From Bacteroidales bacterium (GTDB lineage: Bacteria; Bacteroidota; Bacteroidia; Bacteroidales; P3): a stretch of DNA of 64,000 nucleotides. Below the pieces are notes generated by a model. It was not told where the DNA came from. It did not search any database and saw nothing but the letters and a program-made list of their open reading frames with translations. Where the stretch lies: positions 31,994 to 95,993 of the forward strand of contig JAFROL010000013.1 in NCBI GenBank assembly GCA_017429685.1, read 5' to 3'. A program made the position numbers and the translations under genes. This document shows positions 2,032 to 60,100 of the stretch, in pieces. The number at the start of each line of letters is the position of its first letter. The first letter of the stretch is position 1.

Positions 2032-3147
2032 TTACTTGTTGGCTTTTTCGAAGTCCTGCATACACTGGACGAGAGCCTCGACGGCCTCGACGGGGCAAGC
2101 GTTGTAGAGGCTGGCGCGGAAGCCACCAACCGAACGGTGACCCTTGATGCCGACCATACCGCGCTCCTTGGCGAAGGCCATAAAGGCATCCTGCAGGTTC
2201 TCACGGCCTTCGGCCATAACCCAGCAGTGGTTCATAATCGAGCGGTCTTCCTTCTCGGCCGTGCCGCGGAACATCGAGTTGCGGTCGATTTCCTCATACA
2301 GCATAGCGCTCTTCTTGAGGTTGATCTTCTCCATTTCCTTGACGCCGCCAATGGTGTTCTTGACCCACTTCAGGGTTTCGTGCATCACGAAGATGGCGCT
2401 TACCGGAGGAGTGTTGAACATCGAGATGTTCTTGGCCTCTTCGGCAGCGTGGGTGCGGAAGTCGACCATCGTGGGCAGCGGATTCATATACTGGCGGTCG
2501 GTGATCTTGCCGAGGATGTCTTTGCGGACGATGTAGAAGGTGACACCGGCAGGGCCGACGTTCTTCTGGGCACCACCGTAGATCAGACCGTACTTCTTAA
2601 CGTCGACGGGACGGCTCATAATGTCCGAGCTCATATCGGCGACGAGCATAACGTTGTTGATCTCGTTGGCGGCGAAGTCCTTGCGGATCTCGGTACCGTA
2701 GATGGTGTTGTTGGTCGTGATGTGGAAGTAGTCGGCGTCGGCAGGAACGGTCCAACCCTTCGGGATGTAGCTGTAGGTCTTGTCCTCGCTGCTGGCGACG
2801 ATCACGGTCTCGCCGAAGTTCTTAGCCTCTTTGGCAGCCTTCTTGGCCCAAACGCCGGTCTGCAGGTAGGCAGCCTTCTTGTTGAGCAGGTTGGCGGGAA
2901 CATCCATAAAGCCGGTGCTGGCACCACCGCCGAGGAAAAGGATCTCGTATTCAGCGGGGATGTCCAAAAGGTCGCGCCACAGCTGGCGGGTTTCTTCCAT
3001 AGTGCGCTCCCAGCCGGGGGTGCGGTGGCTTATCTCGAGCAGACCGATGCCGGTGTTGTCGAAATCGCGGATGGCATTGATCGTGGATTCAATGGCCTCT
3101 TTGGGCAGGACACAGGGACCTGCGTTGAAATTATAAGCTGTTTTCAT
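2032..3147 (-). CDS. serC: phosphoserine aminotransferase
   Basis: 371-aa ORF beginning MKTAYNFNAGPCVLPKEAIE..., a typical SerC N-terminus. It lies next to serA. Confidence 0.9.
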   Translation of the reverse strand: MKTAYNFNAGPCVLPKEAIESTINAIRDFDNTGIGLLEISHRTPGWERTMEETRQLWRDLLDIPAEYEILFLGGGASTGFMDVPANLLNKKAAYLQTGVWAKKAAKEAKNFGETVIVASSEDKTYSYIPKGWTVPADADYFHITTNNTIYGTEIRKDFAANEINNVMLVADMSSDIMSRPVDVKKYGLIYGGAQKNVGPAGVTFYIVRKDILGKITDRQYMNPLPTMVDFRTHAAEEAKNISMFNTPPVSAIFVMHETLKWVKNTIGGVKEMEKINLKKSAMLYEEIDRNSMFRGTAEKEDRSIMNHCWVMAEGRENLQDAFMAFAKERGMVGIKGHRSVGGFRASLYNACPVEAVEALVQCMQDFEKANK

Positions 3148-3216: not shown

Positions 3217-3224
3217 CAAAGTTA
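3217..3224 (-). promoter_or_regulatory. candidate Bacteroidota -7 promoter box (TAACTTTG on the minus strand) for serC
   Basis: The plus strand reads CAAAGTTA, whose reverse complement TAACTTTG fits TAnnTTTG. It is about 70 nt upstream of the serC ATG. Confidence 0.4.
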
Positions 3225-3520
3225 CGCCTTTTTTTAATATTAATGTATAAATCATTAATATTTTTTTCAAAAAGTTTTCAATGCTTTATCAACACCGTCG
3301 CCGCCACCCTCGCCACAAGGCACCCGAAGCTCCACTTCCCAGCCGAAGCCCAACGACGCACAGCGGAAAGCAACGGCACCCGGCGACGCATTCCGACAAA
3401 CAACGCCAACTGGCGGCACATAATGAAAGCAAACGGCACATAATGGCATACAGTCAGACCATACGACAAAAACGAACACGTAAACCACAGAATATCACCA
3501 CCTTTACTACACCTTCTTTA

Positions 3521-3617
3521 CCCGTTGTACGCTATTTGTACGCTATTTGTACGGTATTTGTACGCTTTTTTACCGTACAAGTACCGTACATATAGCGTAC
3601 ATATAGCGTACAACGGG
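3521..3617. repeat. GTAC-iteron palindrome, copy 1 (imperfect)
   Basis: The left arm is CCCGTTGTACGCTATTTGTACGCTATTTGTACGGTATTTGTACGC, with 11-nt units containing GTAC. The right arm is its inverted copy with one TATTTG/TATATG difference per unit. It is homologous to 43299..43405 and preceded by a C/A-rich flank (about 3290-3520). Confidence 0.9.
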
Positions 3618-3619
3618 CA

Positions 3620-4200
3620 GTGCAAGCCGGCCTGGGCCGGGCTGGAAACGATTTCCGACGGCAGGCACACGGAAAAAATTTTTTCGTTTGACCGAAAAAA
3701 AATATTTTTTTGTGAACAGCCGATGTTCAAACCCGCCGTCGCAAAGGCCGAAAACAATGAAAATGTGAACACTAAAAAAAACAGGAAAACACCTTGTTGC
3801 TATCAATCAAAAAGTTATGGCAACAGATTGAATTTCTGACTTTTACAAAGCCCGACACAAGCACTTTGCTACGACACAGCGACTTAAAAATTTGAACAAA
3901 AAAAGTGCAAAAAACCATCAATTTTTTTTCAAAAATATTTTTTTGTTCAAAATATAATTGTATATTTATGGCCCTGAAAAAAAGTTAATGAAATGTTAAT
4001 TTATTGTCAAATAAAGTTTTTTAGAGATAAAACATTTTTCGGGCCCCAAGGGGGCGATTCGGTTTAGTAAAAATATCCGAAATGTGCAAATTTTTTTTCA
4101 AAATTCCATTAAAAAAAAATGTGAGAACTTTGCATCAGAAACAAAAAAAACACCAGAATTAGGTAAGTCGTATAAAATCACACTGAAAGAAATCGTCAAG
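3620..4200. other. AT-rich region upstream of dnaA, candidate oriC/DUE
   Basis: It contains many A7-A9 and T7-T9 runs. The heptamer (G/T)TGAACA or its complement recurs at about 3712, 3724, 3765, 3892 and 3944. Gene orientation switches here, with serC/serA leftward and dnaA rightward. There are no perfect TTATCCACA boxes. Confidence 0.3.
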
Positions 4201-6254: not shown

Positions 6255-6283
6255 ACGGCAAAATAAATGAATTATTTTGCCGT
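6255..6283 (+). terminator. hairpin after the flavin reductase gene
   Basis: ACGGCAAAATAA-atgaa-TTATTTTGCCGT gives a 12-bp stem followed by T-rich sequence. Confidence 0.45.
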
Positions 6284-6332
6284 TATCTGTATTTGATAAA
6301 ATATAAAAACGTATAACAAGATATAGCATATT

Positions 6333-7268
6333 ATGAACATATCCTGCGTCGAACCGCTGGGAATCAGCGAAAAAGATTTTCTCAGACTGCAATCCGAATT
6401 CGCCTCCAAGGGCCATACGCTCTCTTTTTTTATGGACCGTCGCGAGGACGAGGTTTCGCTCGTCGACCGAATGAAAACAAGCGACATAGCCATCATCTCC
6501 AACATCAAGCTGGGCAGCGCAGTGCTGTCGCAATGCCCAAACCTGAAGATGCTTTCGGTGGCCTTCACCGGACTGGACCACATCGACCTTGACTACTGCA
6601 AGGCACACAACATCTTTGTGCAGAACGCCGCCGGCTACTCCACCACGGCAGTCAGCGAACTGGCCGTAGGCCTGATGCTCGACGTGCTGCGCAAAATCAC
6701 GGAACTCGACGGCACCATCCGCCAAGGCGGCAGCCGAGGCGCCTTCCTGGGCCGCGAGCTGAAGGGCAAGACCGTGGGCGTCGTCGGAACGGGCGCCATA
6801 GGCATCGCCACGATGCGCCTGCTCAAAGCCTTTGGATGTAACCTGCTGGCCTACAGCCGTACAGAACGCGACGAAGCCAAAGCGCTCGGAGCCGAATATT
6901 GCAGCCTCGACACACTGATGCAGCGCAGCGACATCGTAACGCTGCACGTGCCTATGACCGCCGAGACTCACCACCTTGTCGGCGCAAAGGAGCTGTCGCT
7001 GATGAAACCGACAGCAGTACTCATCAATACCGCCCGAGGCAACGTCGTCGAAATCGACGCTCTTGCCAAAGCGCTGAACGACGGAACGATAGCCGGAGCA
7101 GGCATCGATGTCTACGAGAAAGAGCCACCTCTGGAAGGCAGCCATCCGCTTCTGAACGCAACCAATTGCGTAGCCGTGCCGCATATTGGCTATGCCACAC
7201 GCGAAGCATTCGACATCCGCGCCGGCATAGTCTTCGACCACGTATGGGATTTCATCAACAGACAATAA
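6333..7268 (+). CDS. D-2-hydroxyacid dehydrogenase family protein (NAD-binding)
   Basis: 311 aa with GVVGTGAIGIA (GxGxxG) and the catalytic-region pattern TARGNVV...PHIGYAT. Confidence 0.8.
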   Translation: MNISCVEPLGISEKDFLRLQSEFASKGHTLSFFMDRREDEVSLVDRMKTSDIAIISNIKLGSAVLSQCPNLKMLSVAFTGLDHIDLDYCKAHNIFVQNAAGYSTTAVSELAVGLMLDVLRKITELDGTIRQGGSRGAFLGRELKGKTVGVVGTGAIGIATMRLLKAFGCNLLAYSRTERDEAKALGAEYCSLDTLMQRSDIVTLHVPMTAETHHLVGAKELSLMKPTAVLINTARGNVVEIDALAKALNDGTIAGAGIDVYEKEPPLEGSHPLLNATNCVAVPHIGYATREAFDIRAGIVFDHVWDFINRQ

Positions 7269-24079: not shown

Positions 24080-24778
24080 ATGACTATACTTCTACTCGAA
24101 ACAGCCACACAAGTGTGCTCGATAGCACTGGCAAAGAATGGCAAAATCGTCGCCGAGAAACACAGCGACGAGCCAAACGCCCATTCGTCGAAATTAGCAG
24201 TTTTCATCGACAATATTTTCAAAGAAAGCGGCATAAGTCCCGACCGGCTCGACGCCGTGTGCGTCTCGTCGGGTCCCGGCTCGTACACCGGCCTCCGCAT
24301 CGGCGTAAGCAGTGCCAAAGGCCTATGCTACGCCCTCGGAAAACCACTGCTCGCCGTGCCGACATTGCAGAATATGGCAGACCTTTACTTTGCGCAACAT
24401 CCAGAATACAACGGCTTTGTCTGTCCGATGATCGACGCAAGGCGTATGGAATGCTATACTGCCATCTTCAGCCGCAGCGGCATCGAGAAGGAAACCTCGG
24501 CCGACGTAATCGAGGCCGGCATCTACGACCGCTGGCTGGACAAAAGTCCCGTTGTCTTTATCGGCGACGGAGCGGAAAAGACCCGACCGCTGCTATCCTG
24601 CCACAGCAACGCCCTCTACGACAGCACCTTCGTCATATCGGCCACGGGGATGGCAGCCACCGCCGAAAACAAACTGAAAAACGGTCAAATCGAAGACACT
24701 GCCTATTTCGAGCCCTTCTACCTTAAAGACTTTGTGGCCAAGAAATCAGTAGTCCACGGGTTGAGAGCGGAAAACTGA
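24080..24778 (+). CDS. tsaB: tRNA threonylcarbamoyladenosine biosynthesis protein TsaB
   Basis: 232 aa beginning MTILLLETATQVCSIAL, with GPGSYTGLRIGVSSAKGL. Confidence 0.85.
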   Translation: MTILLLETATQVCSIALAKNGKIVAEKHSDEPNAHSSKLAVFIDNIFKESGISPDRLDAVCVSSGPGSYTGLRIGVSSAKGLCYALGKPLLAVPTLQNMADLYFAQHPEYNGFVCPMIDARRMECYTAIFSRSGIEKETSADVIEAGIYDRWLDKSPVVFIGDGAEKTRPLLSCHSNALYDSTFVISATGMAATAENKLKNGQIEDTAYFEPFYLKDFVAKKSVVHGLRAEN

Positions 24779-24825
24779 GAACGGAGATCGGAGAACTGAG
24801 AACCGAGAACTGAAAACGGAAAGCG
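24763..24825 (+). repeat. nine degenerate heptads (GAGAACG type) overlapping the tsaB stop
   Basis: The heptads are gagagcg gaaaact gagaacg gagatcg gagaact gagaacc gagaact gaaaacg gaaagcg. The tsaB stop TGA at 24776-24778 lies inside the array. Confidence 0.9.
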
Positions 24826-25986: not shown

Positions 25987-27807
25987 ATGTCCGACACGTC
26001 AAAAATGGGAGTCGGCGGCCTACTCAAGAAGCTGGTTCCCTACGTACTCCCCTACCGTTGGCTGCTCATCTCCGCGCTGATACTCACCGCCTTGGGAGCA
26101 TCGATGGCACAGGTCAACGCCATTGTGCTCGACCGCACCGTCGACTCTATCAACGACCTGCTGCACCAGCCCATCTTCGAATGGGGCAAGGCGGCACGCC
26201 TGCTCATCATCGTCAGCAGCATCCTGCTGGGCAAAGAGATCCTTGCCGCCGTCATCACTTTCGGGCAGCGCATCTTCGGCGAAAAAATCCGCATCAATGT
26301 CAGCCGCGACCTGTCGCTCAAGGTGATAGACCGCATCCTCACCTTCAGGATGGCCTTCTTCAGCGCCGCCGGCAACGAGCCCGGCAAGCTGCAGACCCGC
26401 ATCGACCGCGGCATTATGAGCCTGAGCAACACCGTCAAGAACTTCTTCATCGACATACTGCCGCTCTTCACCAGCGCCATAATGGCCCTGGTTCTGATTT
26501 TTGCCGCCAACGTCTACGTGGGCCTTGTGGCGCTGGCCATCATACCCGTCTATTTCATCATCACCGCCCGTCAAGGAGTGCGGATGAAAGGGTGGCGCCG
26601 CAACGTTTTCGGCACACATCAGGCTCTGAACCACGGCATTATGAACATACTTGAAAGTATGGGCGTCATCAAGTCCTTCAACCGCGAGAGCGTGGAAGCC
26701 GCACGCCAAGCTGCGCTGCAGGAGCAGTCGACGCAGCAGCAGATGCAGACACGTCGCATCTCATTCCTGTTCGAGGGACTGAAAAGCTTTGTCGAGCAAA
26801 TAGGCACCGTGCTGATAATCATACTTACAGCCTACCTTGTCCTGACCGACTACCCCGGGATGAGCATCGGCAAGATAATGTACCACGTGATGCTCTTCAA
26901 CAACGTCAGTGCCCCCATCCGCCAGCTGCACCGCATCTACGACGACCTGAACGACGCGCTGATTTATGCCGAGGGCTTCTTTGGCATCCTCGAAGCCGAC
27001 GAAGAGGTCGAGGAAAGCGGCAAATACAAGCCCGCCAAGGTGGAAGGCAACTTCGCGTTGCGCAATGTGGAGTTCACCTACCCCAACGGCACCCACGCCA
27101 TACGCAACCTGACGATGGACATCCGTGCCGGCGAAACGACGGCCCTTGTTGGGCTGAGCGGTGCCGGAAAGACAACGATTGTCAACCTGCTGGACAAATT
27201 CTATTCGCCCGACAGCGGCACTATCACCCTCGACGGGGTGCCGCTCAACGAATGGGACACACAGACGCTGCGCGACAACATCGGCCTTGTGCTGCAGAAA
27301 AACCACATTTTCAGCGGCACCGTCGAGGAGAACATACGCTACGGCAAACCGTCGGCCACGCGCCAGGAGATTGAGGAGGCGGCACGCAAGGCGTACATCT
27401 ACGACCAGATAGCCGCAATGCCCGACGGCTTCGGCTCACAGGCCCTTCTGCTGAGCGGCGGACAGCAGCAACGCATCGCCATAGCGCGAATGTTCCTGAA
27501 GAATCCGCCTATCATATTCCTCGACGAGCCCACCGCCAGCCTCGACGCCATTGCCACCGAGCAGATCAAGTCGAGCATCGACGCCATCAAGCAGGGGCGC
27601 ACAGTGATTGTAATATCCCACAACATAGGACAGATCATCGATTCCGAGCAGCTCTATGTCCTCGACCACGGCACTGCCGTACAAAGCGGCTCGCCGTCGG
27701 AGGTCTACAAGCAAGGAGGTCTGTACAAGGAGATTTTCGACGCCAGTGCCCGCAGTATGAACGTCGACAAAATTGCCGACACGATGGAAGTGAGAACTGA
27801 GAACTGA
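25987..27807 (+). CDS. ABC transporter ATP-binding protein/permease (MsbA-like exporter)
   Basis: 606 aa with a six-TM N-terminal half, Walker A GLSGAGKTT, signature LSGGQQQR and Walker B IIFLDEPT. Confidence 0.9.
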   Translation: MSDTSKMGVGGLLKKLVPYVLPYRWLLISALILTALGASMAQVNAIVLDRTVDSINDLLHQPIFEWGKAARLLIIVSSILLGKEILAAVITFGQRIFGEKIRINVSRDLSLKVIDRILTFRMAFFSAAGNEPGKLQTRIDRGIMSLSNTVKNFFIDILPLFTSAIMALVLIFAANVYVGLVALAIIPVYFIITARQGVRMKGWRRNVFGTHQALNHGIMNILESMGVIKSFNRESVEAARQAALQEQSTQQQMQTRRISFLFEGLKSFVEQIGTVLIIILTAYLVLTDYPGMSIGKIMYHVMLFNNVSAPIRQLHRIYDDLNDALIYAEGFFGILEADEEVEESGKYKPAKVEGNFALRNVEFTYPNGTHAIRNLTMDIRAGETTALVGLSGAGKTTIVNLLDKFYSPDSGTITLDGVPLNEWDTQTLRDNIGLVLQKNHIFSGTVEENIRYGKPSATRQEIEEAARKAYIYDQIAAMPDGFGSQALLLSGGQQQRIAIARMFLKNPPIIFLDEPTASLDAIATEQIKSSIDAIKQGRTVIVISHNIGQIIDSEQLYVLDHGTAVQSGSPSEVYKQGGLYKEIFDASARSMNVDKIADTMEVRTEN

Positions 27808-27873
27808 AAACGGAAAACGGAGAACTGGCTGCCGCATTATGGCTTTCAGTTCTCCGTTTTCAGTTTTGAGTTC
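27801..27873. terminator. heptad-built hairpin between convergent genes
   Basis: There is a perfect 15-bp core (27813-27827 with 27847-27861). It extends to about 27 bp with 2 mismatches, and the loop is 19 nt. The arms are GAGAACT/GAAAACG heptads. The left arm overlaps the last 7 nt of the ABC gene. Confidence 0.65.
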
Positions 27874-27881
27874 TCCGTTTG

Positions 27882-28445: not shown

Positions 28446-28589
28446 TATTATTTCAAAACTGGAATAACTGCAAAACGGGGAAATTATTTTACAGGAAATT
28501 ATTAAATAAACTTAAAAAACGCGAAATCGTTTTCGGGTACACAGCGGAATAGGGGTGCGCACAGTCCTGGCTGCGCCGTATTTTTGCCT

Positions 28590-28664
28590 ATCGTTCGAAG
28601 GCAGTTCTTATATCGTTCTTATATCCGCAATATAAGAACGATATAAGAACTGCATTCGAACGAT
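28590..28664. repeat. 35-bp-stem palindrome with 11-nt units (GTTCTTATATC)
   Basis: The arms are (TA)TCGTTCGAAGGCAGTTCTTATATCGTTCTTATAT and their inverted copy, separated by the loop ccgca. There is one mismatch and no flanking U-tract. Confidence 0.9.
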
Positions 28665-28697
28665 GTGCGAAAAGGGCCATCGGGTGCGAGGTTGGTG

Positions 28698-29936: not shown

Positions 29937-30063
29937 TAAAGATTAAAAATTAAAGATTAAAAATTAAAAAAATTGAGAGTTGAGAGTTGAAAGTTGAAAT
30001 CAGTTGTCGCTGGTATTGACCTGCGGGAAAGGATTTCAACTTTCAACTCTCAACTTTCAACTT
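29937..30063. repeat. heptad array plus 29-bp hairpin (TTGAGAG/TTGAAAG units)
   Basis: TAAAGAT/TAAAAAT heptads start directly at the oxidoreductase ATG. Then 29973-30001 pairs with 30032-30060 (29 bp, 1 mismatch, 30-nt loop). Confidence 0.9.
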
Positions 30064-30072
30064 ATTATATTG

Positions 30073-41934: not shown

Positions 41935-42043
41935 GATAATTCGTTAATTCGTTAATTTTTCAATTTGTTAGTCATTTACGTTATTCGTTATTCGTTCTTC
42001 GTTCTCCGTTCTTCGTTCTCCGTTCTTCGTTCTCCGTTCCCCT
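41935..42043. repeat. composite octamer (GTTAATTC type) plus nine-heptad (TTCTCCG/TTCTTCG) array filling the hpt-FGE spacer
   Basis: Octamers span 41935-41974 and heptads span 41981-42043. On the minus strand the array reads GGAGAACGAAGAAC... starting at the stop of the upstream gene. Confidence 0.9.
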
Positions 42044-43118
42044 ACTCTTCCTCCGGCTCCTCCACTGAGTCAAGCACCAGGCGGAAACCGTGGAAACCAT
42101 AACCATAGTCCGGCTGGTACCAGCTGCGGTCGCTGACCGTGCAGCCCCACGACGGACTGTTCAGGCTGCCGCCACGCAAAATGCGGCTGTCGCCGTGCTT
42201 CGGACCACGCGGATTGGTCTGATCCTCACTGCTGTAGGCACCATACCAGTCCGAGCACCACTCCCACACATTGCCAGCCATATCGTGCAAACCCAGCTCG
42301 TTGGGCTTCTTGCGGCCCACAGGATGCGTGTAGTTGCCCGAATTCATACCGTACCACGCCACAGCTCCCGGATCGCCGTCCTGGCCCGGATACACATAGC
42401 CCTTCGACAGGTTGCCACCACGGGCGGCAAACTCCCACTCGGCCTCGGTAGGCAGGCGGAAACGGTAGCCCGTCATCTGCGACAGGCGCGCAATGAACAT
42501 CTGAACGTCGTTCCACGACACCTGCTCCACAGGCAGACTGTCGTTGTATGTCCAGCGGCTCGGATTGTCGCCCATCACCTCCTTCCACAGGCGCTGCGTG
42601 ACCTCGAACTTGCCCATATAGAACGAATCGACCGTGACCTTATGTGTCGGAAATTCAGCCTCATAGTTATGCTTCGCACTCCGCGGACGCGTGCAGCCCA
42701 TAGTGAAAGTGCCGCCAGCGACAGGCATCATCCTGAACTTCATATTGTTCACCTTGATGTCCACCGAACCGTCGTCGACCTCCACCGAAAAGCGAATCAG
42801 CGTGTCCGAGGCATTAAAACCCGTCGAATCAGGCTCATAGGGCAGCAGGCGCAAGTCGGGCAAGTCGTAGACAATAATCTTCTTGCCCTTGCCGGCCTTC
42901 ACATCCTTGCCGATATCGCCAGCCATATTCTCAATATAGCCGCCGTAATAGCGACCGCCGTCAATCGACACACACACCCTTATGTTGGCATCCTTGCTCA
43001 GATCGTAGGTCAGCGTGACCTCCTTGTCCTGACGGGTGAAAGCAACATTCGATATATTTTGCGCGCCCGCGAGGCCGCAAAACGAAAGCATCGTACAGAG
43101 TAAGAATCTAAATTTCAT
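42042..43118 (-). CDS. formylglycine-generating enzyme (SUMF1) family protein with N-terminal extra domain
   Basis: 358 aa with a signal peptide and the FGE-sulfatase motifs RLPTEAEWEFAARGG, GNVWEWCSDWY and RILRGGS. Confidence 0.85.
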   Translation of the reverse strand: MKFRFLLCTMLSFCGLAGAQNISNVAFTRQDKEVTLTYDLSKDANIRVCVSIDGGRYYGGYIENMAGDIGKDVKAGKGKKIIVYDLPDLRLLPYEPDSTGFNASDTLIRFSVEVDDGSVDIKVNNMKFRMMPVAGGTFTMGCTRPRSAKHNYEAEFPTHKVTVDSFYMGKFEVTQRLWKEVMGDNPSRWTYNDSLPVEQVSWNDVQMFIARLSQMTGYRFRLPTEAEWEFAARGGNLSKGYVYPGQDGDPGAVAWYGMNSGNYTHPVGRKKPNELGLHDMAGNVWEWCSDWYGAYSSEDQTNPRGPKHGDSRILRGGSLNSPSWGCTVSDRSWYQPDYGYGFHGFRLVLDSVEEPEEE

Positions 43119-43156
43119 ACCTTTATCTTATTTGATGGCACTTGTATCCAAAATTG

Positions 43157-43164
43157 CAAATATA
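43157..43164 (-). promoter_or_regulatory. candidate -7 promoter box TATATTTG (minus strand)
   Basis: The plus strand reads CAAATATA. It is 39 nt upstream of the ATG at 43118. Confidence 0.4.
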
Positions 43165-43298
43165 CAAAAAAAATCAATATCCGTTGCCAAAAAACCAAAA
43201 AACACACAGAAAAAAAACCAGACCGCCCTACCACAAGGACCTCAAAGCCGGAAACCGTCCACAAAACGCATCCGCAAACCACTGACTGACAGTACCCT

Positions 43299-43405
43299 CT
43301 TCGCCCGTTGTACGGTATATGTACGGTATATGTACGGTATTTGTACGCTTCGAAAGCGTACAAATACCGTACATATACCGTACATATACCGTACAACGGG
43401 CGAAG
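43299..43405. repeat. GTAC-iteron palindrome, copy 2 (perfect)
   Basis: The sequence is CGCCCGTTGTACGGTATATGTACGGTATATGTACGGTATTTGTACGCTT-cga-inverted copy. The arms pair perfectly over 52 bp (43299-43350 with 43354-43405). The units are 11 nt. It lies about 95 nt past the nrdG stop. Confidence 0.95.
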
Positions 43406-43497
43406 GAGGTGTTAAGGATCAGCCGTTTAGGTGGTGTGAATTATGGCCGGCATTCCAGCTCGCTGGCAGGGCACAGAATATGGTGTACCCCCCAGAT

Positions 43498-43962
43498 TCA
43501 TTTGCGCCAGAAAAGCGAGGTGATGTCCTGCATCGCGCCGTCGCTGACGCGATAGAGCCGCTGGTTGGTCTTGGGATTGCGCAGGTTGCCCAGATGCGCA
43601 AGGTAGGGTCCGAGCTTGACATAGTCGAAATTGCGGAGGTCGACAGCCTTCGAAAGCAACGAACGGCCACTGTACCAGGCTGTCCGCAGCCACGGATAGC
43701 GCTGCCGCAGATGCTGCATCAGACCGTCGACCTCGTCGGGATGGGCATCGCCACCCATAACGGCAACACAGGTGATGTTGCCGTCGCAGCGGTCGACAAG
43801 GCTGTCGACGGCGTCGGTCGTCAGAGGCTGCCCGTCGTCGCGCCAAAGGTATGGCGAATGGCATCCGGGGCAACGGCAGGGGCATCCGCTGACGTTGACG
43901 GCAAGGGCCACTTCGCCAGGAATCTCCTGAAACACTATGTCGCTATTGGTGTATTTGAGCAC
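43498..43962 (-). CDS. nrdG: anaerobic ribonucleoside-triphosphate reductase activating protein
   Basis: It has the radical-SAM cluster motif CPCRCPGCHS. I trimmed the start to the GTG at 43962 (MLKYTNSDIVFQEIP...), because the upstream part of ORF 43498..44046 is encoded by the heptad repeat. Confidence 0.8.
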   Translation of the reverse strand: MLKYTNSDIVFQEIPGEVALAVNVSGCPCRCPGCHSPYLWRDDGQPLTTDAVDSLVDRCDGNITCVAVMGGDAHPDEVDGLMQHLRQRYPWLRTAWYSGRSLLSKAVDLRNFDYVKLGPYLAHLGNLRNPKTNQRLYRVSDGAMQDITSLFWRK

Positions 43963-43987
43963 GGGATATTGGTTAACGCGTTTGTCA

Positions 43988-44067
43988 GTGACCAGTGACC
44001 AGTGACCAGTGACCAGTGATACGAGCGCGTTCGTGTCACAGGTCACTATTCACCATTCACTATTCAC
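43988..44067. repeat. heptad arrays in the nrdD-nrdG spacer
   Basis: (GTGACCA)x4 plus GTGATAC on the plus strand (43988-44022). On the minus strand, five GTGA at a 7-nt pitch (TCAC at 44036, 43, 50, 57 and 64 on plus). The first of these contains the nrdD stop codon. There is a central imperfect hairpin. Confidence 0.9.
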
Positions 44068-46163
44068 AGGTTGGCTGTGGCGTAGTGGCGGCGGGCAGCC
44101 TCCTCCTGGCGAGGCATCGAGAAGTTGCTGACACGCTTCAGGTAGCCGATGATGCGCGTCATATAGTCGACATTCTTGGAATGGCAGTGCGGACACTCCT
44201 TGAGGTAGCGCTTGTCGATGTGGCCACAGTCGTTGCAGATGGTGTTGGGAATGTTGAAAGTGAAATAGTTACAGCCTTCCTTGGCAGCCACGTGCAGCAA
44301 TTTCAGGTACTGCTCCTGCGACAGGTGCTCCTCGAGGTTGCAGTGCAGCGCGCTGCCTCCGGTGAGATGCTCGATGTAGGGCTTGCCGTGGAGACGGAAT
44401 TTTTCGAGCACAGAGATGGATGGGTCTTCGACGATGTAGAAATAGCTGTTGTAGCAGTCGCGCGGGACGAAGTAGCCGTCCTCGCGGTCCCATTTGGCGT
44501 GCTTCACACCGACATTCTCGGCGGGAATCATCTCGCAGTTGAACATCACCTCCTTGGTGCGGTACTCCTTGTTCTTCTGCTCGACCAGCCCGAGCACGGT
44601 CTGGACGAAGTTTCGGTAGTCGGGGTTATCGTTGATAGTGAGACCCATAAACTCGGCGGCTTCAACCAATCCGTTAACTCCGATGGTGAGGTACTGGCGG
44701 TTGATGTTGATATAGCCGGCATCGAAAAGGGGCAGCATTCCGTGCGACGCGAGCTCCTTGAGGTTCTCGTTGTAGGCCAACTGCACCTTGTGGCACAGGT
44801 CGATGATGTCGGTGAGGAACTCGCGATAGTCCTTCTTGTTGTTGACGGCATACTGTATGCAGCGGTTCAGGTTGATGGTGAGAACGCTTTTGGAGCCCGT
44901 CGAGACGCCGCCGGCGCCAAGGGTGTAGCTGAAGCCGTTGTCGGTGATTTCGTTACGCAGACGGCAGCAGCTGCTGAGCGAGTCGGCGTTGTCGCTCATA
45001 TAGGTGAAGAAACTGTGGCCCGCAGCGTACATCTCGGCGGTGAAGTCGGCCATCTCGGGGTCGACCATCTCGCCGTCCTTGCTGAGCAGCGCCATCGTTT
45101 CGACAGGGAAGGTGAGCACGGCCTTGGTGCGCTCCTCGTTGAACCAGCGCATAAAGCGCTTCTGCAGCCACTTGAGGCCTTCCCAGTCGGGTGCGCTGCC
45201 GTCGGGGAAACGGAACTCGCCGAAGAGGCTGTCGAAATAGGGCTTGTCGTAATAGGCTATGTTCCAGAACACGGCCTGATAGTTGCGTGCGCCGGTGGGC
45301 TGGTTGAGGGTGTAGACGATCTGCTCGAAGCAGTCGGTGATGACCTTGTCGAGCGTGCGGTGCTTGAGGCTGAGGTCGACCACCTGGTCGGCGCGGGTGT
45401 AGTAGTCGGTGCCGTAGTCCTTGCCGATGAAGTAGTTGAGGTACATCAGGAATTCGGGCGTGGCGCAAGCTCCGCTGAGCATACTGCTGACCATAAAGAC
45501 CATATTGACGAATCCGCCGCAGAAGGACTTGAGGTTGGTGGGCGCCGTCGAGTTGCCGCCGATTGAGGCTGTGCCGCTGAGCAGCCAGGGATACATCGTG
45601 ATGCTGGCGCAATAGTTGGCCAGCGATGTCTCGTCGTTCTTGTAGATGAAATGGTGTGTAAGCAGCTCTATATACCTATCGGCCAGCTCTTTGCCGAACA
45701 TCGCCTTGATGCGGTCGGTGAGCAGGCGGCGGTTGAGGCGGATGAACCCCGACTTGGGCAGTTCGCCGATAAGTGTGGCGATGTTCTTGTGCTCGACATT
45801 GGCGTTGGCGTCGTATTTTGAGCCTGTGGCGGCATTGGCAGCCTGGCAGTACTCGGAGAGGAACTTCATCTTCTCCATCGTCTCGCGGTCCTCGGTGTGG
45901 CGCTGCCGGTAGAGCATAAAACTTTTGGCGACATCGAAATACTGCTCTTTCATCAGTGCCACTTCGACCTGGTTCTGAATCTCTTCGACGGTGATGCCAT
46001 TGTGGATGTCGAGATGGGTCAGGATTTTGGACAGGGCACCCAGGTCGACAGGCTTGTCGAGCGAATTGAAGGCTTTGATGACGGCGTTCATTATCTTGTC
46101 GAGCGAGAAGCGTTCGGCATTTCCGTCACGCTTGGTGATTGTCAGTATATTGCTACTTTCCAT
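44064..46163 (-). CDS. nrdD: anaerobic ribonucleoside-triphosphate reductase
   Basis: 699 aa with an ATP-cone-like N-terminus, a C-terminal Zn ribbon (CNDCGH...CPHCHS) and the glycyl-radical tail RIIGYLKRVSNF. Confidence 0.95.
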   Translation of the reverse strand: MESSNILTITKRDGNAERFSLDKIMNAVIKAFNSLDKPVDLGALSKILTHLDIHNGITVEEIQNQVEVALMKEQYFDVAKSFMLYRQRHTEDRETMEKMKFLSEYCQAANAATGSKYDANANVEHKNIATLIGELPKSGFIRLNRRLLTDRIKAMFGKELADRYIELLTHHFIYKNDETSLANYCASITMYPWLLSGTASIGGNSTAPTNLKSFCGGFVNMVFMVSSMLSGACATPEFLMYLNYFIGKDYGTDYYTRADQVVDLSLKHRTLDKVITDCFEQIVYTLNQPTGARNYQAVFWNIAYYDKPYFDSLFGEFRFPDGSAPDWEGLKWLQKRFMRWFNEERTKAVLTFPVETMALLSKDGEMVDPEMADFTAEMYAAGHSFFTYMSDNADSLSSCCRLRNEITDNGFSYTLGAGGVSTGSKSVLTINLNRCIQYAVNNKKDYREFLTDIIDLCHKVQLAYNENLKELASHGMLPLFDAGYININRQYLTIGVNGLVEAAEFMGLTINDNPDYRNFVQTVLGLVEQKNKEYRTKEVMFNCEMIPAENVGVKHAKWDREDGYFVPRDCYNSYFYIVEDPSISVLEKFRLHGKPYIEHLTGGSALHCNLEEHLSQEQYLKLLHVAAKEGCNYFTFNIPNTICNDCGHIDKRYLKECPHCHSKNVDYMTRIIGYLKRVSNFSMPRQEEAARRHYATANL

Positions 46164-46322
46164 TTATAATGTATTTTTTTCATTTTTACACAAAAAAGAG
46201 TTCAGCGGACCCTCCTTACGGACTTGGTTTGCTGGCTGTGCGACAAAAGCTTGCATATGGGGCTGCGACGGCGAAAACGGACGACGAGGACAATTGGCTT
46301 TTGGCGCGAAAGCATTGTCGTT

Positions 46323-46500
46323 GGTCGAGGCCGGTCTCCTGGCTTGTCCGACGGGCAACGCCTTCTCGGACCCATCGGTCCAATGGCTGTTGTTGCCCCA
46401 CGTGGGTGAACAGACTCCCCCACCCGACATCACAGTTGCGCGACAGCTCGCGAATTGCACGCGATTCCCTCCCCGACAGATGCGGGGCTTTTCCTCGACC
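46323..46500 (-). promoter_or_regulatory. cobalamin (B12) riboswitch aptamer
   Basis: On the minus strand, the 5' half of P1 (GGTCGAGG) is followed by GGGGAGGGAATCGCGTGCAATTCGCGAGCTGTCGCGCAACTGTGA, then AGCCATTGG...GGGTCCGAGAAGGCG, then the B12 box AAGCCAGGAGACCGGCC and the 3' half of P1 (CCTCGACC). These segments line up with the E. coli btuB leader motifs as I recall them. Confidence 0.85.
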
Positions 46501-46576
46501 TACAAAAGTGTCAAAGTACTCATTAAGAATGAATAGTGGCATTTTTTGCCTCTATAGGCCTCTTGTTTTGACAATG

Positions 46577-46584: not shown

Positions 46585-46640
46585 CTACAAATAGGCGTAC
46601 GCGGCAAATAAAGTTCTCAACGCAGGGTGTTGATAAGTTA

Positions 46641-46700
46641 GTTAATGGGGGAGTTAAAAGGGGAGTTATAAGGGAAGTTAAAAGGGAAGTTAAAAGGGAC
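46641..46700. repeat. five 12-nt repeats (GTTAAAAGGGRA)
   Basis: The units are gttaatggggga gttaaaagggga gttataagggaa gttaaaagggaa gttaaaagggac. The A-tracts are phased at 12 nt. The array is upstream of the candidate nrdD promoter. Confidence 0.9.
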
Positions 46701-46716
46701 AATACGAATTATCTTT

Positions 46717-46765
46717 CCGTTCTCCGTTCTCCGTTCTCCGTTTTCCGTTCTCCGTTTTCCGTTCT
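46717..46765 (-). repeat. seven heptads (minus strand GGAGAAC/GGAAAAC) directly after the ClC stop
   Basis: The plus strand reads ccgttct x3, ccgtttt, ccgttct, ccgtttt, ccgttct. The array ends 7 nt from the stop at 46773. Confidence 0.9.
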
Positions 46766-46772
46766 CCACTGA

Positions 46773-59763: not shown

Positions 59764-60051
59764 ATTTAAAAGCCAATTGTTTAAATTACGCATAATGTGC
59801 GATGTACAGACATCGCGGAATCAAGAATTGTTTTGCAAAAATAGCACATTTTCCGAAAACGCAGCCATCATTTCCAAAAAACTGCACAAACCGGAACCGC
59901 GAGTATCGGTTCAGACAATTCCAAACCGCATCCTGTCCGCAGTGCAAAAAGCATCAAAACAACCGTTAATTTTCTTAATATTTAAGTTAAAAACAGTTAA
60001 AATCCATAGTATTTTTAACAAATCACAAAACCCTGTTTTCCAGGGACCAAA

Positions 60052-60100
60052 TACCTACCAAAGTTCACTCAAACTCCTACCAAAGTCTTACCAAATTTTA
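60052..60100. repeat. 11-nt-phased TACC array, copy 2
   Basis: TACC occurs at 60052, 60056, 60078 and 60089, with spacings of 22 and 11 nt. The core TCCTACCAAAGTCTTACCAAATTT matches about 21 of 26 nt of 11587-11612. Confidence 0.7.

Follow-up and report, generated by a model that had tools for sequence, protein, structure and literature searches.

What is a long, nearly perfect palindrome of regularly spaced GTAC-containing units doing beside dnaA in the genome of a Bacteroidales bacterium? Its 11-nt pitch had invited a reading as an iteron-like protein-binding array, and its neighbour could suggest a special link to dnaA or to the origin of replication. We followed the palindrome through the window, by which we mean the whole 64-kb stretch of DNA that was analysed, and through collections of genomes and metagenomes. 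Most likely the GTAC hairpin does not belong to the origin and is instead a small DNA element that is mobile or maintains itself, and we infer that the position of its first copy near dnaA is incidental.

Two palindromes in the window

The sequence-only reading had described an inverted repeat about 600 bp upstream of dnaA, with three 11-nt units in each arm. The palindrome (copy 1, Table 1) is real, with 44-nt arms that are 93% complementary, a 9-nt loop, and units of the form TTGTACGSTAT spaced at exactly 11 nt (TRF period 11). Its three full units per arm stood up, but the number of GTAC sites per arm is four, the fourth lying in TGTACG. From the end of the palindrome to the ATG of dnaA is 586 nt, within a 1055-nt spacer that contains an AT-rich segment, and the divergence of serC and dnaA, which had been held to speak against a simple terminator, was confirmed. 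The Bacteroidetes -7 promoter consensus is TAnnTTTG, and a likely serC box points away from copy 1 at a distance of about 300 nt. A profile of the family described below matches copy 1 from 3511 to 3627; the left outer extension equals the palindrome in its conservation between strains, and the right-side extension known from other copies is missing. Comparison of SerC with relatives named by their sources puts the window within Bacteroidales, near Candidatus Limimorpha (86%) and Candidatus Egerieousia (80%). For the anticipated RNA hairpin of more than 40 bp, the predicted RNA fold of copy 1 is -70.8 kcal/mol (z = -13), the corresponding DNA fold being -45.1 kcal/mol.

Table 1. Coordinates of the palindromes and of the features around them (window positions unless a contig is named; a dot marks features without strand).
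Feature	Position	Strand	Remarks
serC (phosphoserine aminotransferase)	2032-3147	-	Pfam; transcribed away from copy 1
Likely serC -7 promoter box	3217-3224	-	TAACTTTG (minus strand); conserved in relatives
C/A-rich, T-poor tract	3278-3471	+	contains GGCACATAATG twice
Left outer extension, copy 1	3472-3520	.	resembles family flank
Palindrome core, copy 1	3521-3617	.	arms 3521-3564 and 3574-3617
Right outer stem remnant, copy 1	3618-3627	.	GGGCAGTGCA type
dnaA	4203-5651	+	Pfam; transcribed away from copy 1
FGE-sulfatase-family gene	42042-43091	-	downstream of copy 2 on the minus strand
C/A-rich, T-poor tract	43148-43271	+	from FGE-sulfatase-family promoter to copy 2
Likely -7 box, FGE-sulfatase-family gene	43157-43164	-	TATATTTG (minus strand)
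Left outer extension, copy 2	43272-43293	.	reverse complement GGTACTGTCAGTCAGTGGTTTGCGG; family flank type A
Palindrome core, copy 2	43294-43410	.	57-nt arms, 3-nt loop
Right outer extension, copy 2	43411-43431	.	GGTGTTAAGGATCAGCCGTTTAGG; family flank type A
nrdG-like activase (Fer4_12)	43498-44046	-	stop codon 88 nt from copy 2
Sister-species CGTTCTTCGCT palindrome	L097 6264-6369
Sister-species CGTTCTTCGCT palindrome	L098 6687-6815
Sister-species CGTTCTTCGCT palindrome	L099 ~6255-6380

The homologous copy that had been reported 40 kb away proved real and longer than described. Its arms are 96% complementary, with four GTAC sites each, and it sits between two minus-strand genes, bounded by the stop codon of the nrdG-like one and by the promoter of the FGE-sulfatase-family one. 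Predicted folding energies are -101.8 kcal/mol for RNA (z = -19) and -66.9 kcal/mol for DNA. The promoter box segment is the sole part of the DNA upstream of the FGE-sulfatase-family gene that aligns with the orthologous regions of relatives. Within the window, the unit pair TGTACGSTATWTGTACG has 12 matches at no more than two mismatches, against 0.01 expected, all of them inside the two copies, and when the window is searched with a profile of 39 family members the same two, and no others, come up. No T-run was seen after either copy, and neither reached an Rfam gathering threshold, only generic miRNA-hairpin models scoring (54.7 vs 101 bits). A cobalamin riboswitch (76 bits; 46312-46512, minus strand) lies upstream of nrdD-nrdG (44064-46163 and 43498-44046), which encode the anaerobic ribonucleotide reductase.

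GTAC is not depleted in the window (observed/expected 0.81), and we therefore rejected it as a restriction-avoidance signal. The window does avoid CATG (4 seen, 249 expected), CTAG (3 vs 78) and GATC (75 vs 233), a strong avoidance that suggests restriction pressure.

The C/A-rich, T-poor tract with a direct repeat, also pointed out earlier, is likewise present beside copy 1. T makes up 11% of positions 3278-3502, the longest non-coding T-poor stretch in the window, and the repeat GGCACATAATG begins at 3412 and 3432. The tract is real, locus-specific and hypervariable. Between strains it differs by 10–12%, against 0.5–1.7% in the flanking genes, with the variation concentrated in 3292-3470, no indels and the composition preserved; the palindrome and the 50 nt beside it differ by 0–2%. 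The tract preceding copy 2 resembles it (reaching 43308 by a wider delimitation). We considered whether the tract belongs to the repeat and rejected this, as its sequence is not common to other copies and only a mild compositional skew is shared. Coding potential was rejected because the predicted peptides are of low complexity, the frames that are open in three strains resulting from the T-poor, A-poor composition, and DGR-like mutagenesis because the substitution spectrum has no adenine-specific bias. Across the family, the DNA that separates the element from the adjacent promoter has a modest C/A bias in the direction of the element (sense-strand G+T 0.566 vs 0.489 in controls, p = 0.004), and part of this skew is due to the element's own outer arm. 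A palindrome-free relative is also G/T-rich upstream of the FGE-sulfatase-family gene, indicating that the skew is independent of the palindrome.

A dispersed intergenic family with fixed geometry

The sequence-only reading had proposed looking for the motif in other genomes, and copies were found in several MAGs and in ruminant metagenomes. A scan of 185,579 species-representative genomes with a pattern of three phased units found the palindrome in 21 contigs of the sheep-rectum Bacteroidales MAG JAFWYO01 (about 18 distinct sites once contig ends were merged), in 8 contigs of a second MAG, JAZNSV01, and once in the rumen MAG CACYPU01, the remaining matches being unrelated direct arrays. A scan of metagenomes brought in some 25 more, most of them in assemblies from the ruminant gut. 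The GTAC palindrome is a dispersed non-coding family in the intergenic DNA of an uncultured gut and rumen Bacteroidales clade. It is a previously undescribed family of GTAC-unit palindromic repeats that matches no described one; annotated plasmids and phages contained no match, and a full-text literature search for the unit sequence returned unrelated primers only. Neither a duplication confined to a single genome nor random placement, the outcomes against which the earlier reading had staked its finding, describes the family, which occurs in at least four lineages and has a promoter-side intergenic bias. Many copies lie at contig ends, as expected of a repeat that breaks assemblies. In one contig (L127, 1-240) the left flank is an exact inverted copy of the right flank, about 190 nt in all; the palindrome has probably made the assembly snap back on itself here.

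The core measures about 100–117 bp and has the consensus ...CACCTTCTCTGCCCGT-(TGTACGSTATW)x3-TGTACGC-TTCGAAA-GCGTACA-...-ACGGGCAGAGAAGGTG..., terminating in ...CTCTGCCCGTTGTACG. Flanks are non-homologous between copies except for a degenerate extension of about 40 nt, recognisable on many arms in two forms, one of them longer by some 10 inserted nt (GGTGCTGTGAATCAGTGyTTTAGG, and GGTGCC-TTAAGTGT-CTGGTTTTCAGTG); with its extensions the whole element thus comes to about 160–185 bp. Conservation peaks at the centre and decays outward. GTAC spacings are constant across lineages at 11-11-11-15-11-11-11, the central distance being 15 in all variants, and the unit itself is lineage-specific, with GSTAT in the window species and JAFWYO01, GATAY in JAZNSV01, and GATAC/GTTAT in CACYPU01. 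Throughout the 39 aligned copies, no unit departs from TGTACG or from the TA after it. Such invariance at a spacing of one helical turn points to a putative protein reading several units on one face of the helix, and on this evidence from sequence the units are probably read by such a protein. The search pattern demanded three intact units on one arm, which brings in some ascertainment bias; the non-selected arms are decayed in a few copies (L063, L076, L124, L141), and full doublets outnumber half-copies.

The two arms change together. Of the cells in the 39-copy alignment, 94.2% pair, and 17 pairs carry changes on both sides. Cells with a double change number 84, against 37.4 +/- 4.6 in shuffled alignments, none of 500 shuffles reaching 84, and the signal is lost when the partner column is slid. 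Two variable S positions pair as GC (18), CG (15) or AU (4) in almost every copy, and for units 1 and 2 all four symmetric combinations exist, with only about five asymmetric copies. Unit number also varies, as one unit has been lost from one arm of copy 1 in a strain of the window species (L080), and a sister-species contig (L099) is down to three units against the four of its relatives. Both slippage and templated mutation at quasi-palindromes are established processes. On the simplest account, units may convert one another within an arm by slippage, and a change in one arm would then be either lost or copied to the other arm via the hairpin, so that arm symmetry is probably kept by hairpin-templated (quasi-palindrome) correction. 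Selection for a hairpin would give the same pattern, and covariation alone therefore does not separate constraint on the DNA from constraint on an RNA. Mismatches comprise 5 GT (one inherited position), 2 AC and 15 others, with no consistent strand bias; we rejected strand-specific G-U wobble as a sign of RNA function, the mismatches being too few and mostly inherited, and we likewise rejected L124 as a wobble-preserving arm, that arm being a decaying one.

All copies are intergenic. With neighbouring genes called by a codon-usage model trained on the loci, 40 of 54 non-redundant neighbouring gene ends were starts and 14 were ends, and the 18 copies with both neighbours known comprised 13 between divergent genes, and 5 in tandem arrangements (one of them behind a tRNA with its terminator); convergent pairs had no copy between them. 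Outward-pointing boxes of the TAnnTTTG type lie beyond the element at 60–300 nt, and start codons can be as near to it as about 50 nt or more than 400 nt away. The neighbours are functionally unrelated, and include topA, gltX, pta, ackA, Tex, AnmK, GH20, peptidases, T9SS cargo, an AraC regulator, serC, dnaA, nrdG, tpiA and a miaB-like gene. Placement and neighbours together exclude a terminator role for most copies and argue against a regulon operator. An intrinsic terminator, which is a GC-rich hairpin with a U-tract behind it at a gene's 3' end, was rejected on this placement, together with the missing T-run after both window copies.

Gain, loss and retention

Copy 1 is present in all six assemblies of the window species, which have identical SerC, and no insertion polymorphism was seen among these six strains. 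In the sister species (SerC 97% identical) the divergent dnaA-serC order is kept, the spacer is 762–819 nt instead of 1055, and it has neither the palindrome nor the C/A-rich tract and is otherwise unalignable. Orthologues of the FGE-sulfatase-family gene (86–92% identity) have other upstream neighbours and no palindrome, and only the promoter aligns. No clean empty site could be aligned in relatives at either locus, the serC-dnaA and FGE-sulfatase spacers aligning at the promoter only. One further contig (L082, 1-1110) encodes a SerC identical to that of the window, but tpiA replaces dnaA upstream across a 198-nt spacer without a palindrome, an indication that the DNA was rearranged or recombined at the very promoter of serC. 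The family also has a member upstream of tpiA in JAZNSV01 (L071).

Elsewhere copies have been kept. JAFWYO01-type genomes and CACYPU01 both have a family member upstream of an orthologous miaB-like gene, in a region syntenic over 5 kb whose proteins are 42–70% identical, and each copy carries the unit variant of its own lineage. Similarly, L124 keeps the element at a site orthologous to that of L073 and L170, with flanks 79–86% identical; one of its arms is canonical and the other has changed in concert. These absences and retentions indicate that copies are lost or gained and are also retained for long periods, and that copies within a genome evolve in concert. REPIN populations are described in the same terms, vertical persistence included (PMC3116915; 10.1101/2022.05.22.493013).

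The sister species has a palindrome of its own 2 kb from serC, built of CGTTCTTCGCT units, four 11-nt units per arm, around a short AT loop. Behind it, as far off as in the GTAC family, comes TATCAGTGTCTTTACGG, which matches that family's flank motif (ATCAGTGTCTTTACGG). These sequences suggest that architecture and flank are older than the unit sequence. GTAC and CGTTCTTCGCT palindromes share four 11-nt units per arm and the motif ...ATCAGTGyTTTAsG, and it is conceivable, as a tentative conjecture, that both belong to one superfamily of self-symmetrising 'iteron hairpins' in which these features and a fixed centre would be conserved and unit turnover between species would track a dedicated putative protein that reads the sequence.

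Candidate explanations and known systems

The reading we favour, and regard as reasonably probable, is that the GTAC element is a REPIN- or MITE-like non-autonomous palindromic repeat. A trans-acting protein that reads the phased TGTACGnTAy units would copy the element, in the form of a DNA hairpin or duplex, into new sites. Copies would then persist by vertical inheritance at intergenic positions where little harm is done, and slippage together with hairpin-templated correction would keep the arms and tandem units alike. Like REPINs, the GTAC elements are non-coding hairpins of about 100 nt with two inverted halves, present in tens of copies per genome, strictly extragenic, with lineage-specific variants, vertical persistence at orthologous sites, and decaying copies beside intact ones. 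In REPINs, two inverted halves and a spacer fold as a hairpin and the doublet is the replicating unit (PMC3116915); here the arms are inverted around a 3–9-nt spacer and fold very stably, with about 18 sites in one fragmented MAG and two in the 64-kb window. REPs are imperfect palindromes of 20–40 bp that carry a terminal GTAG (or CGTC) tag, are found mainly downstream of genes, and in their GTAG form are unreported in Bacteroidetes (PMC3733652). Their cognate RAYT (Y1 HUH) gene is usually single-copy and has the repeats on its flanks. The GTAC elements differ in having 44–57-nt arms of 11-nt tandem units without a GTAG or CGTC tag, in being near-perfect palindromes with 3–9-nt loops, in their promoter-side placement, and in that no RAYT was found in the 0.8 Mb of loci searched.

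Searches for the machinery returned the following. In 0.8 Mb of loci from incomplete MAGs, tblastn with approximate queries of low sensitivity gave no match to a RAYT or IS200-like transposase, and the same loci had no multi-copy ORF near the elements. Nowhere in these loci did an ORF lie between two separated arms, and 25 copies showed neither a target-site duplication nor a sharp element end, their outer ends being degenerate. Since no transposase, target duplication or within-species polymorphism was found, mobility is something that we infer. Conservation that peaks at the centre also counts against a REPIN- or MITE-like element, since in a classical transposon it is the terminal inverted repeats that are conserved. 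Bacterial MITEs (Correia of Neisseria, ERIC/IRU, RUP) resemble the GTAC family in being small, non-coding, multi-copy and intergenic, often near promoters, with inverted repeats that can fold as RNA. MITEs have defined terminal inverted repeats within a target-site duplication, a parent autonomous IS sharing their ends, and presence/absence polymorphism at orthologous sites, but for the GTAC family no target-site duplication, defined termini or parent IS with matching ends was found among the loci and conservation is central. Eukaryotic foldback (FB) transposons have inverted arms of short tandem repeats that vary in number of units, at kilobase scale and sometimes with coding capacity. The GTAC arms, with tandem units of varying number, recall them in architecture only, no homology being implied.

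A function that benefits the host would account just as well for the strict TGTACG, the fixed spacing, the deep retention at one site and the promoter-side bias. The eight phased TGTACGnTAy sites, four to an arm and all facing the same side of the helix, could recruit a nucleoid-associated or regulatory protein or extrude a cruciform, tuning or insulating divergent promoters or local supercoiling, and copies would then persist through usefulness and not through replication. We regard such a host-serving binding array as unlikely, although several observations agree with it. TGTACG and TA are invariant in the 39 copies, with the other unit positions lineage-specific; the 11/15 spacing is fixed in four variants; the sister species combines this architecture with different units, which co-evolution of units and a protein would predict; and the promoter-side bias is 40:14. 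Likewise, the element is kept across deep divergence upstream of the miaB-like orthologue, and the L124 arm is canonical despite 14–21% flank divergence. Against this, the neighbouring genes have no common functional theme, the distance to the start codon varies widely, orthologous spacers of close relatives are without the element, four copies (those listed above) are decaying, and degenerate outer arms accompany the core, as is typical of a transposed unit.

Still less probable, in our judgement, is an element acting as RNA, in which a transcribed hairpin of 44–57 bp would be an RNase III substrate, a barrier to 3'-exonucleases or a transcriptional roadblock, and the C/A-rich (inward) or G/U-rich (outward) flanks would be parts of the transcript. 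The very stable predicted RNA hairpins, the arm covariation, the position of copy 2 past the nrdG stop, the 14 copies facing gene ends, the C/A-rich bias of the flanks toward the element (significant as given above), and the other unit-built hairpins directly after stop codons in the same genomes are consistent with such a role. However, 13 of 18 copies lie between divergent promoters, crossed by no known transcript; the hairpin is not followed by a U-tract, G-U wobble has no consistent strand bias, no Rfam family scores above threshold, and a DNA-level process explains the palindrome covariation equally well.

The special tie to dnaA did not survive; that the element is an origin-linked iteron or a dnaA/oriC control site is highly improbable, despite the location of copy 1 in the AT-rich-segment-containing spacer between diverging genes, as dozens of copies lie elsewhere beside unrelated genes (one 40 kb away), DnaA boxes with at most one mismatch do not cluster (11 window-wide vs 10.2 expected, only one in the spacer), and the sister species lacks the palindrome with the same dnaA-serC order. 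With plasmid and phage iterons the GTAC units share only their pitch of roughly a helical turn. Iterons are repeated directly at the one origin of a replicon, next to a rep or initiator gene, DnaA boxes and an AT-rich unwinding element, whereas the GTAC arrays are inverted, dispersed on the chromosome, without a rep gene and with dnaA as neighbour at copy 1 only, an arrangement that is not that of an origin iteron. Direct TGTACG-N5 arrays are common in phage contigs (46 loci), and the genes beside them revealed no common neighbour, comprising one primase-helicase, one methyltransferase and others without assignment. Two related IMG/VR contigs (L024 10300-10470, L036 660-800) contain long arrays of 11-nt units, with four copies of TGTACGCTATA, identical to the window unit, alongside other xxxxxxTATAT-type units in a partly palindromic arrangement; their neighbouring ORFs had no PHROG match.

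Other hairpins built of short units accompany the GTAC family. Four more palindromes occur in the window, several of them directly after stop codons: 27788-27879, with arms of 7-nt GAGAACT/GAAAACG units; 28581-28673, shorter, with 11-nt CGTTCTTATAT units and without the GTAC family flank motif; 29962-30071, with 7-nt TTGAGAG units and, following it, a T-run on the minus strand, terminator-like; and about 43985-44065, with 7-nt GTGACCA units. Intergenic short tandem arrays lie at 24763-24820, 41979-42039, 46640-46699, 46716-46767 and 60046-60095, their units being the heptamers GAGAACG, CGTTCTT and TCCGTTC, the 12-mer AGTTAAAAGGGA five times, and an 11-mer. In JAFWYO01, very long hairpins of AGTTAAGGGA-type units of about 10–11 nt adjoin GTAC elements (L055 250-480, L053 5880-5970). 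IVS-like heptamer hairpins, which enclose 23S_rRNA_IVP / four-helix-bundle genes, occur in the same genomes and are also strain-polymorphic with tandem-unit arms, but they have 7-nt units, often a gene in the loop, and no sequence in common with the GTAC family. Between serC and serA, for example, a PF05635 gene sits inside a GTGAC-type unit hairpin (L080 5117-5604; also L083, L087 and L098 4197-4571) that is absent from the window (about 2020-2032) and from L081, indicating an insertion polymorphism at the strain level. Unit-built hairpins seem to be a genome-wide habit of the clade.

The GTAC elements break metagenome assemblies and could serve as strain markers. REPs, REPINs and MITEs are well studied in Proteobacteria and hardly at all in Bacteroidota, a dominant gut phylum, and the build of the present family is unusual, with near-perfect palindromes of 100–117 bp made of phased 11-nt units whose geometry is fixed and whose unit sequence depends on the lineage. 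If a cognate protein exists, it would represent a new partnership of repeat and enzyme and a new multi-site mode of DNA recognition; if there is none, the family would illustrate how slippage and hairpin-templated correction can maintain long palindromes in bacteria. Should the GTAC and CGTTCTTCGCT palindromes indeed form one superfamily, it would be a Bacteroidales counterpart of REPIN-RAYT, with another class of enzyme, multi-site recognition and, possibly, co-option at promoters.
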